Virus record (IMG/VR): IMGVR_UViG_2571042372_000005
Strand: one strand, 5' to 3'
DNA length: 16,037 bases
Source: a virus
Taxonomy: Duplodnaviria; Heunggongvirae; Uroviricota; Caudoviricetes
Shown one piece after another: positions 385 to 6,495 of the stretch. How positions within the stretch are numbered: position 1 is the stretch's first letter; each line of letters starts with the position of its first letter. A model generated the notes under the pieces. The model searched no databases and had not been told where the DNA came from. It saw only the letters and a list, made by a program, of their open reading frames with translations. The position numbers and the translations under genes were made by a program.

Positions 385-426
385 GTTCACAGATAAAACA
401 CTCTCCAGGAAACCCGGGGCGGTTCA
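1..426 (+). mobile_element. IS629-like (IS3 family) insertion sequence, copy A, partial: only the 3' 426 bp lies in the window
   Basis: 1..426 matches the reverse complement of 5240..5665 with 2 synonymous substitutions in the stretches compared by eye; ends in the terminal inverted repeat ...CCAGGAAACCCGGGGCGGTTCA at 426. Confidence 0.9.
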
Positions 427-1193
427 ATACGGGAGAACTCATAACCGCAGTCATGACATCTGCCGGAATAGTTCGATTGAATTTGTTTTAGCGCCGGATA
501 CAGTTCGCGGAATAATGCCTGTGAGCGGTTGGCATAATCCCATAGCCATACAAGGCTGTTTGCTTCTTTTGCAGAAAGCTCGTTGGTTTTCTTCTCTTGT
601 TTGCCGATGAACTCACCTTCAAGCACTACCCTGTGGATGTACTCTACTGCTTGTGGTATCTGAGATGCATCAAGCTCTTCAATACTTTCCACATTGAAAC
701 GCTGATGAATCATTGCATAAGCTTCTGGGTACATTAGATGCTTTTTGCTGACTAGCATATTTACAGCATCACGAAGCGGAGTCCTGTCATCAACAGATGT
801 TTTCTTCCGTGCATTTGCTGCCTCTCCCTTTGTCCAGTAGTCATGCAGCACAGTAAAGCATTCTTCCTGGTACTGAATCAGTTTATCGCGGATGTCAGCA
901 CGAACTTTCTCAGGGTTGATGCTGAACAGCCATCCATTTAACTTCTTCAAAGGAAGGCAGAGTAGCTTACGAAGCTTACCATCAGCGGCAACCATGTTCA
1001 TATGAACACAGTTGAATTTGCTAATCTGCTTCATGAGTTTTGTTTGCTGCGTTGACCAGCTCATTCCGAGGTTTTCAACGATTGGCTTCATCGCAACATA
1101 TGCAACTCCGGCAGCCATGGCGGTGATAATTTGCTGACCGTTGAATGGCACGTAAGAGGTGTTCACTGCTTCTAAAATTGCTATACTATTCAT
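427..1193 (-). CDS. ant: Phage antirepressor (Ant-like), 3'-truncated by IS629 copy A
   Basis: ORF 387..1259 reads on into the IS inverted repeat, so the native stop is missing. Likely start is ATG at 1193 ([10 protein letters not shown]...) behind GGAGAAAA; an upstream in-frame ATG at 1259 is the alternative. Position downstream of an Arc-like gene matches P22 immI. Confidence 0.55.
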
Positions 1194-1425
1194 GTTGGTT
1201 TTTCTCCACGGATTTACCGACAACCGAAGCCCTGACTGTTCCAGCAGTTGGGGCTTCACTGTTTTGATTTCTTTGCCGCATCAAGCATCACTTCTGAAAA
1301 CGTGCGCTTGCCACTGAATACTCTTTCTCTTCTCAATTTTTCGTTCGTGCCAAATGATTCGCCATGAACAAAATTTGGTCTTAAAATGGTAATCGCAATC
1401 TCTTTGACTACTGCATCCAAGCGAA

Positions 1426-1578
1426 TCACACCGTTACCCCCTCTCTCTTCAGGCTGTCTATCAGGCGCTTGATAACCTCTGAGTTAAACGACCTGCACTC
1501 TTCCTTTGCCCTGCTACCGATAGCATCCTTTAACGACTGCGGCATCCTTACCAAAATCTTACTTATTTCTTTCTCCAT
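1426..1578 (-). CDS. arc: Arc-like ribbon-helix-helix repressor (50 aa)
   Basis: MEKEISKILVRMPQSLKDAIGSRAKEECRSFNSEVIKRLIDSLKREG resembles P22 Arc as recalled (RS-NSE core, KxEG tail); GGAGGG 5 nt before the ATG at 1578. Confidence 0.7.
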   Translation of the reverse strand: MEKEISKILVRMPQSLKDAIGSRAKEECRSFNSEVIKRLIDSLKREGVTV

Positions 1579-1692
1579 GTTACCCTCCACGCAAACAACT
1601 CTTTTCGAATACAAAAGATAGCAAAGTGAGTATATCTAGTCAAAATTTTTTTGCATACACTTTGCTATCAAATTGAATACCAAAGGTGTTAT
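1579..1692. promoter_or_regulatory. Divergent arc-ant / mnt control region with a 12-bp perfect inverted repeat
   Basis: GATAGCAAAGTG (1617..1628) and CACTTTGCTATC (1658..1669) separated by 29 bp; TTGACT -35-like hexamer on the - strand at 1638..1643; TTGCAT at 1650..1655 on the + strand. Confidence 0.5.
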
Positions 1693-1941
1693 ATGGCAAA
1701 GGGTGTGTCAATTTCTCCAACTACGGTAAGAATCCCTGAATCTTTACGCGAGGCTCTTGCTGTCAGAGCATCAAAAAATGGTCGCTCTGTTAACTCCGAG
1801 ATCGTCATGATTTTGCAAGCCGCGATTGATGAAGATAGGTCGCCAAAGTCAGTTGAGTCATTTGCTCAGCAAGAAGCTGATAAATTCAAAGAGGCGCTAC
1901 TTGAGACGCTAAAGACCATGTATGCTAAGGATGAAAAATAA
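1693..1941 (+). CDS. mnt: Mnt-like ribbon-helix-helix repressor (82 aa)
   Basis: VRIPESLREALAVRASKNGRSVNSEIVMILQAAI matches the Mnt/Arc RHH core (NGRS-NSE); C-terminus ...LKTMYAKDEK resembles P22 Mnt as recalled; divergent from arc. Confidence 0.75.
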   Translation: MAKGVSISPTTVRIPESLREALAVRASKNGRSVNSEIVMILQAAIDEDRSPKSVESFAQQEADKFKEALLETLKTMYAKDEK

Positions 1942-2477
1942 TGCTGCACACAATTCATTTCTTATGCCCTGTTAACACTGCCACTGTTGGGCAACTTCAG
2001 AACCACTGTCTCACCGCATTATCTCAAGGCGCAACTGAATTAAATATCCATATATCAAGTCAGGGAGGGGAAACTGCTGCTGGCTTTACTGCGTATAACT
2101 TTCTTAAGTCACTCCCTGTTACCGTTAGAACTCACAACATAAGCAATGTTGAATCCATAGCTAATATCGTTTTCCTGGCTGGCTCAGAACGTTTCGCAAA
2201 CCCATTATCAAGATTCCTGTTACATCCTCTATTATGGTGCTTTGCCTCCCCAGCCGCCGACCATGCCAGATTGAGAGAGTACGGGAAATGCCTCGATAAC
2301 GATCTTGATCGCTTCGTTGAGACGTTCAATATCGACATCGGAACCCATATTAGGTGGGCATCCCTGATAGCAGACTCGACCATTTTGGATGCTAACAAGG
2401 CTCTTGAGCATGGCATAATTAATTCCATAAAAACTGCAAGGCTGGCATCCAATCAGGCAAACTGGTGGGTTGTTTGA
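1941..2477 (+). CDS. ClpP-fold (S14/S49-like) serine peptidase homologue lacking the ClpP N-terminal region
   Basis: By-eye alignment to E. coli ClpP: IHISSQGGETAAGFTAY vs INSPGGVITAGMSIY; VESIAN Ser aligns with the GQAASMG catalytic Ser; RF-NPLSRFLLHP vs RFCLPNSRVMIHQP keeps the His; a later Asp (ADSTILD) is a candidate third residue. Start ATG overlaps the mnt stop (TAATG). Confidence 0.6.
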   Translation: MLHTIHFLCPVNTATVGQLQNHCLTALSQGATELNIHISSQGGETAAGFTAYNFLKSLPVTVRTHNISNVESIANIVFLAGSERFANPLSRFLLHPLLWCFASPAADHARLREYGKCLDNDLDRFVETFNIDIGTHIRWASLIADSTILDANKALEHGIINSIKTARLASNQANWWVV

Positions 2478-2503: not shown

Positions 2504-2527
2504 AAAAACCCACCTGACGGTGGGTTT
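2504..2527. terminator. Intrinsic terminator between convergent genes (possibly bidirectional)
   Basis: AAAAACCCACC-tgac-GGTGGGTTT hairpin; on the - strand it follows the 2526 stop and is followed by a T-run. Confidence 0.7.
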
Positions 2528-2983: not shown

Positions 2984-3550
2984 TCAGTGGAAGTTACCAG
3001 AGTGAAACACACGAGTCCCGTGCTCAGCAAGCGCACGCAAACCAGCCATATCTACGGAACTATCAAAAACAACCGGAACACATGAGCGTTGTTTAATAAG
3101 ACTATTCAGGTTGGTTACGGCAGATCTGGCATCAGCAACAACGATATAGATATCTCTTGCGATCTCTTTAAAATCAGCAGAAGCTTCTTTGAATACCGAT
3201 TTCATTGCCCCTTCAAGTCCTCTCAATTGATGCTCTATCAATCGAGACTTTTCTGGTTCAATGATAGACAACACATTGTCTACATTCTCATCGGTAGCGT
3301 TTGCAAGAACACGATAAGCGTATTTCAGCATTCGAGACAATTCTTTAATCGAAGACACCGCCTCATGAAGCTCATCATTAGCCCGTTCACTGCTGAATGA
3401 GGATTGATGGTAAGCGTGCTGAACGTTATCAGTAACAACCACCTCACAACTGAACGCAGAAGCTTGCTGTAATAGCAAACCTATTGCGACTCCAGCTTTG
3501 GCAGCGTTCAAGCTAAACATTTCATCAATCCCATTAGTCTCATTGCTCAT
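2984..3550 (-). CDS. Hypothetical 188-aa protein encoded immediately upstream of the YafO-like toxin; putative non-canonical antitoxin/partner
   Basis: AAGGAGG SD before the ATG at 3550 (the ORF-track start at 3580 lacks an SD); no RHH/HTH or YafN/Phd-like motif recognisable; same operon as the toxin. Confidence 0.5.
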   Translation of the reverse strand: MSNETNGIDEMFSLNAAKAGVAIGLLLQQASAFSCEVVVTDNVQHAYHQSSFSSERANDELHEAVSSIKELSRMLKYAYRVLANATDENVDNVLSIIEPEKSRLIEHQLRGLEGAMKSVFKEASADFKEIARDIYIVVADARSAVTNLNSLIKQRSCVPVVFDSSVDMAGLRALAEHGTRVFHSGNFH

Positions 3551-3725
3551 ACAAACCTCCTTCTTATCGGAGATTATCAATAGCTATGCATCCATTGAAT
3601 ACACGCTATGCGCAATAAGTTTACGTCACGTGATATCATTATGCAACCACCGTTCTATCACCGACTAACTTTACTCCCACTCCTATACATCATCTGGTAT
3701 CCTGCGCAAAACTAAGGAGGTTGGT

Positions 3726-4076
3726 GTGAATGCTCAGTCTGTCATCATGGTTTTCCTTGGGCTGATTGTCGCAAAACTATATCCAGACTGGTGGAAAGGG
3801 GCATTAGCTACTGTCGCCATCTATTTGCTTTTATCCATCGTTAAGCGATCACTCGCTGAGACCGTAAATCAAGCAAAACGTTTCTCATTTAAGAGTTTAA
3901 TAAACTATGTTACTGGGCTTATTTTTTGCCTTTCAATTCTGATCGCTTCGGCTTTTTTGCCCGTATCAATAGCTAATTTTTTTGGCGCACCATATGAGGT
4001 AGGTTATCTATTCTCTGTTTCCTGTCTTGCCATTGCTCTTCTTTACCTGTGGACGAGATCAAAGAATAAAAATTAG
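3726..4076 (+). CDS. Small integral membrane protein (116 aa, 3-4 predicted TM helices); GTG start
   Basis: AAGGAGG (3714..3720) 5 nt before GTG at 3726; hydrophobic stretches VIMVFLGLIVAKL, ATVAIYLLLSIV, LIFCLSILIASAFLPV, YLFSVSCLAIALLYLW; sits at the P22 sieA-equivalent position. Confidence 0.6.
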   Translation: MNAQSVIMVFLGLIVAKLYPDWWKGALATVAIYLLLSIVKRSLAETVNQAKRFSFKSLINYVTGLIFCLSILIASAFLPVSIANFFGAPYEVGYLFSVSCLAIALLYLWTRSKNKN

Positions 4077-4093
4077 CCATCCGTGGCTGCCAG

Positions 4094-5239
4094 TTATTGA
4101 GCTTCTTTTTGTGATGCCTGTGCGACTCTGGTGAGCGATTGTGTGACCGTACTGATCGCTCTGTCATATGCTGTGCTACCTTTTGGCGTATTTGCCAGAC
4201 GTAACAAGGCATTTCGTATAACAGGGCTTTCGTATGCCTTCGCAGCTCCTCCTACGACACCAGCAGCAGGAACAACAAACGCAGCCGTTTTTAGCATCCC
4301 CGCTAATACTGCTGCGTTTATGATGCCACCACCAACTAACAATCCATAAAGCTGCTGACCATTTAAGTTTTGAACGTTCGCTTTTGCCGCGTGTCTTGTA
4401 TCGTTGAGGTATTTAATAACGCCGTCCAGTTCCTTTCCATGTACGCCTTTAAAGAAAGTTGCTGATTGCTTCCTGTTCCGGTGTAACGCATTAATAAACT
4501 TTTCAACACTAATATTTCCAGACGGATCAGTCGCCTTATCTACAGCATTCTGAACTATGGCTGCTCGTGCGTTTTGCCTACCATTGTCATCCAGAAGCCT
4601 GTAAAGCTGAGAACGTTCTGATGGGTTTTGGCTAAAAACGAGTTTTGTTACATCCTCAGGTGTAGCCTTGCCGCTGGCTATTGCCTTTTGAACGCGCGTT
4701 CTTCCCATCATGTCATTGAATCTAGCCCATGAGCGATCAACCCTAGACATATTGGCAGCTTCTTCTGAGCCTAGTTTTTGGGATACTGCTTTTTTCATAT
4801 CCGCTGTATATGCCTTGTAGACAATATCGCTGGCTTTCTGGAGCGTGTCTTTATCAACAGTCTCGTTTGAATTCATGAACCGCTTTCGAAGGTCAGTTCT
4901 GTTTTCTCTCGCCAGACGCAGGTCATTGGGTCCGCTGGTGATATCGTCTTTAAATTGCTGCAAGACTTTTACCGCGGCTCTATCCTGAGATTTGCCCGGG
5001 CGGCTTAACACGGCAATCTGATTGTCGATAGCTTTTACCGTGTTTGAGAGATCGACAGGGGTATCCCCCATAGCGTCAATTATGCGGTTATATCGCTTTC
5101 CTGCTGCCTCAATGAATTTTTGTTGCCCTTTAGTCGCAGATTCATAAAGCTGTTTATCAGAAATGCCACCCAGACCATCGCTAAATGTTCTGACTAAATT
5201 TTCTCGTGCTTGTTGTTGATTCAGCCGATTCTTACCGGT
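4094..5239 (-). CDS. 5'-truncated phage structural-type protein, possibly an ejection/internal virion protein; N-terminus replaced by IS629 copy B
   Basis: The reading frame is open from the IS junction at 5239 down to the stop at 4094, beyond the first ATG at 5071; C-terminal hydrophobic Gly/Ala-rich segment. Function is inferred from position only. Confidence 0.4.
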   Translation of the reverse strand, partial: TGKNRLNQQQARENLVRTFSDGLGGISDKQLYESATKGQQKFIEAAGKRYNRIIDAMGDTPVDLSNTVKAIDNQIAVLSRPGKSQDRAAVKVLQQFKDDITSGPNDLRLARENRTDLRKRFMNSNETVDKDTLQKASDIVYKAYTADMKKAVSQKLGSEEAANMSRVDRSWARFNDMMGRTRVQKAIASGKATPEDVTKLVFSQNPSERSQLYRLLDDNGRQNARAAIVQNAVDKATDPSGNISVEKFINALHRNRKQSATFFKGVHGKELDGVIKYLNDTRHAAKANVQNLNGQQLYGLLVGGGIINAAVLAGMLKTAAFVVPAAGVVGGAAKAYESPVIRNALLRLANTPKGSTAYDRAISTVTQSLTRVAQASQKEAQ

Positions 5240-5281: not shown

Positions 5282-6172
5282 TCAGGCTGCCAGATCATCG
5301 TTTCCGATGGAAGCATAATAAGCTTTTTCTGCTTCTGCCGGAGGAGTATGGCCCAGCCTTTCCAGCAATCGTCGATTGTTATACCAGTCCACCCACGTGA
5401 GTGTGGCCAGTTCCACTTCTGCACGGTTTTTCCAGCTCTTACGGTGTATTACCTCCGCTTTGTAAAGACCATTGATGCTCTCCGCCATCGCGTTGTCATA
5501 CGAGTCGCCTGTACTTCCTGTTGATGCCAGTAATCCGGCTTCCTTAAGCCGCTGTGTGTAGGCCAGCGATACATACTGAGAACCTTTATCACTGTGATGG
5601 ACCGTGCCGGACGGTCGACGGGCCCATAACGCCTGCTCCAGTGCATCCAGCACGAATGTCGTTTCCATGGACGATGAGACCCGCCACCCCACGATGTATC
5701 CGGCAAACACATCAATGATGAACGCCACATAGACGAAGCCCCGCCATGTGCTGACGTAAGTAAAATCAGCCACCCACAGCTGGTCAGGTCGTTCTGCCAC
5801 GAACTGACGGTTTACGCGGTCGCCTGCGGCAACGGCTTTCCGGCTGATGGTCGTACGGACCTTTTTACCCCGGAGAACACCGGCAAGTCCCATAACCGCC
5901 ATGAGACGTGCCACAGTGCATCTGGCCACTCTGATACCTTCCCGTAACAACTGACGCCAGACTTTACGCACACCGTATACCTTGTGATTTTCATCGTATA
6001 CGCGCTGTATCTCTTTCTTCAGCCAGTCATCGCGCTGCGCACGGGCACTGCGTTTATCCGGATGATGTCGCTGTTGCTGACAGTGGTAATACGTTGACGG
6101 GGCAATATGCAGTTCGCTGCATAGCGGTCCGACCCCGTACTGCTCACGCAGCTTATCCAGCAGTGGCATCAT
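5282..6172 (-). CDS. IS629 OrfB transposase (DDE integrase core)
   Basis: 296-aa ORF in the -1 frame relative to orfA; IS3-family catalytic-core-like sequence ([10 protein letters not shown]...[15 protein letters not shown]). Confidence 0.9.
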
Positions 6173-6495
6173 TTTTTCCAGAGGCGGTCGAACTCCGCCT
6201 TCGCAAAATAAGCGGAAGCCTGGCGAAGGATATCGTTACTGCGGCGCAGTTCACGATTTTCACGTTCCAGCTCTTTCAGACGCTGACGTTCAGCGGTGGT
6301 GAGCCCTCCATCACCGCCCCCGGTATCCCGCTCATGCTGGCGAACCCAGACACGCAGAGTCTCCGGCGTACAGCCAATCTTTGGAGCAATGGAACAAATT
6401 GTCGCCCATTGTGAGTCATATTCGCTCTGACTTTCCAGAACCATACGGACTGCCCGTTGACGGACTTCGGGGGAAAAACGAGTATTTTTAGTCAT
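6169..6495 (-). CDS. IS629 OrfA (HTH/leucine-zipper transposase N-terminal protein)
   Basis: 108 aa, [21 protein letters not shown]...; ends in the A-run GGAAAAAATGA that overlaps the orfB start, the usual site of -1 frameshifting in this family. Confidence 0.9.

Follow-up and report, generated by a model that had tools for sequence, protein, structure and literature searches.

A short ClpP-family peptidase gene overlaps the mnt repressor gene in the immI region of a P22-like prophage

The mnt-clpP pair and its setting in immI

We analyzed a 16,037-nucleotide (nt) stretch of viral DNA (IMG/VR record IMGVR_UViG_2571042372_000005; the whole 16-kb stretch is called the window below). The window is a deletion derivative of a P22-like Escherichia coli prophage located between intS and dsdC, and several complete genomes carry sequence 100% identical to it. 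In its immI region, the gene for an Mnt-like maintenance repressor is followed directly by a gene for a ClpP-like protein of 178 amino acids (aa) (Table 1); RefSeq names the two products 'Arc family DNA-binding protein' and 'ATP-dependent Clp protease proteolytic subunit' (WP_000903306.1). A first-pass annotation, made from the sequence alone, had read this pair as a repressor translationally coupled to a ClpP-fold serine peptidase. Coordinates and sequence of the junction were as described there: the final A of the mnt stop codon TAA (1939-1941) is also the first base of the ATG (1941-1943) that opens the ClpP-like open reading frame (ORF), giving a 1-base overlap, TAATG. An AAGGA Shine-Dalgarno sequence lies at 1927-1931, inside the 3'-terminal codons of mnt and 9 nt before the ClpP-like ATG.

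The TAATG junction was identical in all 47 loci that carry an intact ClpP-like gene of at least 80% identity to the window copy. These loci comprise 14 distinct Mnt alleles with at least six different ribbon-helix-helix (RHH) N-termini, one of which is of the P22 type. Despite this allelic diversity, the junction reads ...ATGTATG(C/G)TAAGGATGA(A/T)AAATAATG throughout. Identity across so many loci and alleles indicates that the overlap did not arise by chance. The sole exception among mnt-fused loci was L056 (IMG/VR, ~3495-4281), in which a single-A deletion in the AAAAATAATG junction shifts the mnt stop codon, so that the 1-nt overlap is lost.

Downstream of the ClpP-like gene, RNA folding revealed a bidirectional terminator hairpin, AAACCCACC-TGAC-GGTGGGTTT, that a simple terminator scan had missed. 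It closes both the mnt-clpP unit and a convergent YafO-like gene, and the same 42 bp are labelled 'terminator' in the record of phage Emek. A consensus scan found no promoter-like site within mnt, which is a weak negative; the same scan also failed to detect the hairpin. In the annotated P22 record, the mnt transcript carries a second small gene, orf59a, ahead of its terminator, and sieA lies just beyond. The ClpP-like gene occupies the in-operon slot behind mnt. Given the Shine-Dalgarno sequence within mnt, the TAATG overlap, the lack of a promoter-like site in mnt and the terminator that follows directly, these signals and the P22 paradigm suggest that Pmnt most likely drives transcription of the gene and that its product is translated along with Mnt, which would place its expression in the lysogen.

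The repressor itself was 36.5% identical to annotated P22 Mnt over residues 11-79 (84% of the length). When the 14 alleles were aligned with P22 Mnt, both the RHH N-terminus and the C-terminal helical tail proved homologous to the P22 protein. Pfam Repressor_Mnt matched the Pectobacterium allele, and the window protein gave a weak FitA-like_RHH match. The gene is divergent from arc and ant, and the layout of the annotated P22 record (ant, sar, arc, divergent control region, mnt) is the same as that of the window. The window Mnt is a true Mnt homologue and, with ant, arc, the sar RNA and a divergent control region around it, the ordinary immI repressor.

The arc-mnt intergenic region contains a perfect 12-nt inverted repeat, GATAGCAAAGTG / CACTTTGCTATC, at 1617-1628 and 1658-1669, with its arms 29 nt apart, and an imperfect third copy overlaps the mnt start (1693-1707). 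These repeats are probably the Mnt/Arc operators of this immunity type. A promoter scan also detected a Pant-like promoter on the minus strand at 1643-1615. The ant gene is marked incomplete in RefSeq. Between arc and ant lies a 57-aa ORF that had no Pfam match and was found in seven related cassettes.

In some immI cassettes, the arc-ant slot is occupied by a 60-aa ORF that encodes a stand-alone homologue of the ClpX C4 zinc finger, the N-terminal domain of ClpX. This ORF is a second Clp-related accessory gene in immI, situated on the lytic (arc-ant) arm, and one IMG/VR locus, L040, has both it and the ClpP paralogue. It was not found in the window, where the slot holds the unrelated 57-aa ORF.

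Table 1. Features of the immI region and its surroundings, with the ClpX zinc-finger ORFs of two sister cassettes (positions in the window unless a locus is named)
Feature	Position	Strand	Evidence
ant (antirepressor), 3' end cut by an IS3-family element ending at ~384	387-1259	-	Pfam P22_AR_N 4e-45, P22_AR_C 3.4e-22; PHROG anti-repressor Ant 1.2e-85
sar antisense RNA of immI	1194-1260	+	Rfam RF00262, 83.9 bits against a gathering score of 43, E 3.9e-17; position identical in P22
57-aa ORF between arc and ant	1256-1429	-	ORF list; RefSeq hypothetical protein WP_000620145.1
arc (Arc repressor)	1426-1578	-	Pfam Arc 9.6e-12; RefSeq coding-sequence limits
Divergent arc/mnt control region	1579-1692		Repeat search, promoter scan, analogy with annotated Pant, Pmnt, Oarc and Omnt of P22
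mnt-like maintenance repressor, 82 aa	1693-1941	+	Pfam Arc 9.5e-11
Short ClpP paralogue (PpClpP1 type), 178 aa	1941-2477	+	Pfam CLP_protease 2.2e-11
Bidirectional terminator hairpin	2506-2527		RNA folds of -17.6 and -18.8 kcal/mol, z -2.95 and -3.25
YafO-family toxin homologue preceded by a 198-aa protein (phrog_8416), pair convergent with the protease gene	2526-2975 and 2984-3580	-	Pfam YafO_toxin 3.4e-22
116-aa predicted membrane protein	3726-4076	+	Immediately before the truncated gene 16 homologue, where P22 has sieA
ALIL frameshift pseudoknot (IS3-family)	6098-6214	-	Rfam, 120 bits
ClpX zinc-finger ORF (sister cassettes)	L013 3055-3237; L040 3307-3489	-	Pfam zf-C4_ClpX 7.6e-11

Fold, active site and docking surface of the ClpP-like protein

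The 178-aa protein scored 44.4 bits against Pfam CLP_protease (cut-off, 20.2 bits), and its AlphaFold2 model was of high quality (predicted local distance difference test, 93.9). Using Foldseek, we matched the model to 9uxt_A with a template-modelling (TM) score of 0.93, a root-mean-square deviation of 1.7 and 38% identity. Canonical ClpPs gave TM scores of about 0.83 (E. coli 1yg6, 0.83; S. aureus, ~0.83), 4ryf and 4u0g gave ~0.8, and the closest viral models did not exceed 0.85, at no more than 25% identity. Similarly, a profile built from 54 relatives matched 9UXT ('Clp protease') with an E value of 1.6e-51 among solved structures; the canonical ClpPs followed at 1e-13 or weaker. The 9UXT structure is that of PpClpP1 of Pseudomonas plecoglossicida (PLoS Pathog 2026, PMC12900304).

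Ser72 (in the motif VESIAN; codon 2154-2156) and His95 (codon 2223-2225) align with S97 and H122 of E. coli ClpP. The column of E. coli Asp171 is occupied by Ser146, and there is no catalytic Asp. In the alignment, 39 E. coli ClpP residues precede residue 2 of the window protein, which begins at about ClpP residue 24 in mature numbering (precursor residue ~38), and the axial loop is absent. We then compared the residues that line the pocket of E. coli ClpP for the IGF/LGF loop of ClpX and ClpA. At the positions of Y60, Y62, F82, I90, M92, F112, L114 and L189, the window protein has N35, H37, S57, H65, I67, F85, N87 and K164, indicating that it lacks the hydrophobic ClpX-docking pocket. The NCBIfam cut-offs for ClpP equivalogs were not reached (19-40 bits against 228-361).

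Profile, fold and the positions of Ser and His thus place the protein in the ClpP family (Pfam PF00574; MEROPS S14 fold). It departs from the canonical E. coli orthologue at Asp171, in the axial loops, in the IGF/LGF pocket and in its equivalog scores. By contrast, the match to 9UXT, the length of ~180 aa, the truncated N-terminus and the Ser-His pair with a non-Asp third residue are all features of a short ClpP of the PpClpP1 type. As judged from its sequence, the protein is a ClpP-family peptidase and not a ClpP orthologue. The ratio of nonsynonymous to synonymous substitution rates (dN/dS) relative to the Pectobacterium copy was 0.06-0.08, a measure usable only for this pair at 80% identity, dS being saturated for relatives at or below 75%. 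The gene is under strong purifying selection.

The best PHROG match of the protein was 'head maturation protease' (phrog_94, 7.3e-21), and the gene is annotated as such in the phiv205-1 record, as might be expected of a displaced ClpP-like head-maturation protease or of its inert remnant. However, the score against NCBIfam Clp_rel_HeadMat (NF045542) was only 49.3 bits against a cut-off of 120, the nearest relatives are cellular short ClpPs, and in podo-, sipho- and myovirus-type prophages the gene lies outside the late operons and opposite to them. P22-type capsids mature without a protease. Strong purifying selection also argues against a remnant. On the basis of the sub-cut-off score, the immI, lysis, early and tail contexts of the gene and its closest structures, we rejected this origin as far as sequence data allow, and it appears extremely improbable. 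Much of the first-pass description was therefore borne out: an Mnt-like repressor in immI (Pfam Arc, the P22 mnt match, sar, arc and ant), a ClpP fold with the aligned Ser and His retained and the N-terminal axial region missing, and a non-morphogenetic gene that is not a known head protease relocated by rearrangement.

Distribution and genomic slots of the gene

An exhaustive profile search at E ≤1e-30 retrieved 246 clusters (50% identity), mostly of 180-200 aa. Ser and His were invariant in all 149 family representatives, and the Asp171 column held G, A, R, E, Q, S or P, so that the whole family is of the Ser-His type. The column of ClpP F82 always held a small residue. Members from Pseudomonas, Azotobacter, Massilia and Nitrospiria are chromosomal stand-alone genes; the Enterobacterales clade and one Chromobacterium member are prophage-borne. 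The family is broad and mostly chromosomal.

We inspected the gene context of about 100 loci, which fell into two clean groups according to identity to the window copy. Copies of at least 80% identity come from E. coli, Salmonella and Pectobacterium, and all 47 intact ones are preceded by an Mnt-type ORF. They occupy two slots. In P22-like immI regions, the order is tailspike-ant-arc-mnt-clpP...gene 16. In lambda-like phages, an ant-arc-mnt-clpP cassette lies between the tail genes K and L and ends 57 nt after the protease stop codon. The complete cassette is found on the opposite strand between K and L in L002 (phage PhiR12_1, 3606-5618), and also in L030, L038 and L043-L047. Insertion between K and L indicates that immI cassettes move as a unit between podovirus and siphovirus genomes.

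Copies of 75% identity or less (from Leclercia, Klebsiella, Proteus, Pantoea, E. coli and others) stand alone, in opposite orientation to the genes around them. Among the loci inspected, none of them had an RHH neighbour or lay beside ant, arc or mnt. Most occupy the lambda bor position, upstream of terS and convergent with the spanin/Rz genes; others are found either between tail-fibre and lysis genes or in the gap that separates N from the early-left operon. These copies have upstream regions of their own. A near-palindrome, ATGAAA(A/T)TATTTCAT, occurs ~90-130 nt upstream of the free-standing homologues in L004, L064-L070, L072, L073, L098 and L101, and is directly followed by GTTGAAT, a -35-like hexamer, in L072, L073, L098 and L101. 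It is possibly an operator at the accessory gene's own promoter. For the Klebsiella homologue (L004-L007, 5001-5717), the gene call gives 238 aa, but the alignment sets the conserved start (MIHTVHF) ~60 codons further in; the extra N-terminal stretch probably results from a mis-called start and spans the promoter region of the gene itself.

At 95% identity or more, the gene was present in 128 of 5426 complete E. coli genomes (~2.4%), including the type strain and many extraintestinal and avian pathogenic isolates. It was found in only six isolated phage genomes, in which it is labelled 'hypothetical' or, wrongly, 'head maturation protease'. Variable presence, varied slots and a terminator would fit an accessory gene of the moron type, and the fusion to Pmnt suggests that the gene may also be expressed in the lysogen.

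These contexts bear on the proposal of the first-pass annotation that repressor and protease form a regulatory or defence module. The pairing is real, and it is conserved in one sub-lineage. However, relatives at or below 75% identity are lone genes in other accessory slots that never have an RHH partner, and Mnt is an ordinary immI repressor; the two genes therefore do not constitute a conserved two-component module. A regulatory or defence role is conceivable.

A related idea is a type II toxin-antitoxin system, in which the Mnt-like RHH protein would neutralize a protease toxin. The antitoxin-first order, the stop/start overlap, the RHH fold with its weak FitA-like_RHH match and the adjacent toxin-antitoxin genes are all in keeping with such a system. 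On the other hand, the RHH protein corresponds to Mnt over its full length and lies in a complete immI, the protease lacks an RHH partner in most lineages and is a chromosomal single gene in Pseudomonas, Azotobacter and Massilia, and PpClpP1 has been expressed in and purified from E. coli (PMC12900304). Because neither the homologues at or below 75% identity nor the chromosomal ones have an RHH or other small partner, we rejected the toxin-antitoxin reading, to which we assign a negligible probability.

Alternatively, the protease could be an integral part of immI that, directly or through host ClpXP, clears leaky Ant or another switch protein in lysogens and thereby backs Mnt repression. Consistent with this idea, the ant-(sar)-arc-mnt-clpP cassette moves as one, with its right edge at the terminator after the protease gene, in both P22-like genomes and the lambda-like K-L slot. 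Moreover, the fusion to mnt is kept across the 14 Mnt alleles, and the ClpX zinc-finger-like ORF lies on the arc-ant arm of some sister cassettes, with both genes together in L040. Nevertheless, the gene is missing from many immI regions, including those of P22 and E. coli 14EC017, and relatives of 75% identity or less never accompany ant, arc or mnt. In addition, the antirepressor type varies among cassettes (P22_AR or Bro-N), and no link between Ant and Clp proteolysis was found in the literature searched. We therefore consider a dedicated immI function improbable.

The third possibility arises from the interval between mnt and gene 16, which is variable: it holds a YafO-family pair in the window, a Panacea-domain pair in one sister prophage, and P63C and no protease in another. 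P22 has sieA in this interval, and sieA is present in only a third of P22-like phages (PMC10883804). In the window, the YafO-family homologue scored below the NCBIfam equivalog cut-off, and its upstream partner, the 198-aa protein, is not a YafN-like antitoxin; the two may form an atypical toxin-antitoxin or defence pair in the mnt-gene 16 hot spot. The predicted 116-aa membrane protein had no Pfam or PHROG match and could be an exclusion protein.

In this setting, the protease could be a superinfection-exclusion or anti-phage effector, that is, an ATPase-independent wide-pore protease expressed in the lysogen that, either alone or through host ClpXP, acts on incoming phages by degrading their proteins, such as unfolded ejection proteins, scaffolds or replication proteins. 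Its position where P22 has sieA, the toxin-antitoxin-like pairs (YafO; Panacea-domain protein) in the same interval of sister prophages and the free-standing relatives in classic prophage-expressed slots all agree with such a role. However, PADLOC-DB 2.0 gave no match (0 families at E ≤0.1), non-defence conversion genes occupy those slots too, and the wider family is mostly chromosomal and lies outside defence islands. A known defence system was rejected for want of a PADLOC match, and an exclusion effector in general is conceivable but rather unlikely.

The window prophage itself is defective. Two IS3-family copies, at 1-384 and ~5282-6495, flank the segment with immI and the accessory genes. 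They have deleted the 3' end of ant as well as all that lay between the genes for the injection protein and the replicative helicase, which explains why the ant 3' end is missing and why all virion and lysis genes have been lost. In E. coli DSM 30083T, the early region lies ~23 kb from the mnt-clpP pair, and that prophage therefore appears to be free of the deletion.

A proposed action on the host ClpP ring and comparison with known systems

The explanation that we favour, with moderate confidence, is that the gene encodes a functional, truncated peptidase of the PpClpP1 type and is a prophage accessory gene, most likely expressed from Pmnt, whose product would act on the host ClpP ring. In this view, the 178-aa protein is an N-terminally truncated serine peptidase with a Ser72-His95 dyad, devoid of the Asp, the axial loops and the IGF-loop pocket. 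Its gene is a moron, neither a head-maturation protease nor one half of a repressor-protease system, and through its fusion to mnt would be expressed from Pmnt with Mnt in the lysogen. We infer, as the most economical reading, that this fusion is a means of lysogen-specific expression of an accessory gene.

The biochemical part of this explanation follows the precedent of PpClpP1, which is a homotetradecamer with a truncated N-terminus and an axial pore of 42.7 Å (PMC12900304). In its 'Ser-His-Pro' site, S73 and H96 are essential and the third residue is not. Its peptidase activity is 13-fold weaker than that of the canonical paralogue, and it does not bind ClpX; together with canonical ClpP, it forms stable hetero-tetradecamers, and ClpX-dependent degradation is enhanced (PMC12900304). 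By analogy with this 38%-identical protein, the window protein would be expected to assemble into a heptamer-based ring or a tetradecamer whose pore is wide, whose peptidase activity is weak and which cannot itself dock ClpX or ClpA. Most likely, it would act by stacking onto a host ClpP ring in a mixed complex and so, for as long as the prophage is resident, alter host ClpXP/ClpAP in activity or specificity. Candidate benefits, which are not mutually exclusive, are the exclusion of other phages, the safeguarding of lysogeny through removal of Ant or another switch protein, and host fitness, for which the alternative ClpPs of Pseudomonas provide a precedent (PMC13056064). The exclusion effector discussed above overlaps with this explanation, as it names a purpose and not a different molecule.

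Several points weigh against the favoured explanation. Identity to PpClpP1 is just 38%, and the oligomeric state and the co-assembly with E. coli ClpP are extrapolations. PpClpP1 purified from E. coli was described as a homotetradecamer, and co-purification of E. coli ClpP was not mentioned (PMC12900304). Between P22-like and lambda-like genomes, the gene and ant-arc-mnt move as a single cassette, which could mean a tighter functional tie to immI than the term accessory gene implies. For the prophage clade, expression and biochemistry are deduced from sequence and analogy. Finally, the eight residues of E. coli ClpP used above are those that we take to form the docking pocket, and they were not derived with a tool.

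A more far-reaching version, which is speculative and in our estimate has a low probability, is a core swap. In this version, the phage ClpP ring would stack on host ClpP in the lysogen and re-tune ClpXP/ClpAP to exclude phages or to hold the antirepressor switch off, the ClpX zinc finger of sister cassettes would serve as a decoy on the lytic arm, and immI and Clp proteolysis would control each other.

The protein family, the concept of alternative ClpP subunits and the RefSeq naming as a ClpP subunit are already known. By contrast, the existence of a phage-borne clade, its regular occurrence in prophage-expressed slots and the fusion of the gene to that of a lysogeny-maintenance repressor appear to be undescribed; we found no description of them in the full-text literature searched. 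Searches on phage or prophage ClpP paralogues, on immI with Clp and on antirepressors with ClpXP likewise returned nothing relevant except the P22 SieA paper and the Pseudomonas ClpP papers, and the PpClpP1 paper never mentions phages (PMC12900304). Alternative ClpP subunits are emerging as a means by which bacteria adjust regulated proteolysis (P. aeruginosa ClpP2 and P. plecoglossicida ClpP1; 2025-2026), and one short-ClpP lineage has been captured by temperate phages of Enterobacterales. If the phage protein does co-assemble with host ClpP, it would represent a new type of lysogenic conversion that acts on the host protease core, and a Ser72Ala lysogen would be a simple genetic handle on Clp proteolysis in prophage maintenance or phage exclusion. 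The analysis also corrects a recurring mis-annotation of the gene as 'head maturation protease' or plain 'ATP-dependent Clp protease proteolytic subunit'.

Among known systems, PpClpP1 is of the same family and of similar length (180 aa), and it shares the N-terminal truncation, the equivalent Ser and His, a non-Asp third residue (Pro151 in PpClpP1, Ser146 in the window protein) and the lack of ClpX-docking elements. PpClpP1 is chromosomal and stands alone beside stress genes, whereas the window copy is prophage-borne and fused to mnt. The possibility that PpClpP1 is itself prophage-borne was rejected from its chromosomal context. We know of no phage-borne representative of the alternative ClpP paralogues found in P. 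aeruginosa, Listeria and M. tuberculosis. Those paralogues (P. aeruginosa ClpP2, Listeria ClpP1 and M. tuberculosis ClpP1P2; PMC13056064, PMC12451819) function only with a canonical ClpP ring. They have a similar fold (the matches to 4ryf and 4u0g above) and in concept provide the same arrangement, a second, atypical subunit that modulates ClpXP via hetero-tetradecamers; however, they belong to other sequence families, are host-encoded and for the most part retain more of the N-terminus.

Phage head-maturation proteases (NF045542; PHROG 94) likewise combine a ClpP fold and Ser-His chemistry with the lack of an ATPase-docking N-terminus, and they are phage-encoded. Their genes belong to the head module, alongside those for portal, scaffold and capsid, and fusion to one of the latter two is common, whereas the window gene occupies lysogeny or accessory slots of phages whose capsids require no protease. 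Morons of the lambda bor type, lone genes on the opposite strand after Rz, have the same position as most relatives at or below 75% identity. Bor is an outer-membrane lipoprotein with no sequence relation to the ClpP-like protein, and, unlike such morons, the window copy lacks its own promoter region and relies on the mnt operon. That operon resembles the mnt-orf59a maintenance operon of P22 immI, in which a second gene and a terminator likewise come after mnt and before gene 16. It differs in that the second gene is a ClpP paralogue overlapping mnt and not the 59-aa orf59a, and in that sieA is replaced by the YafO-like pair and a small membrane protein.

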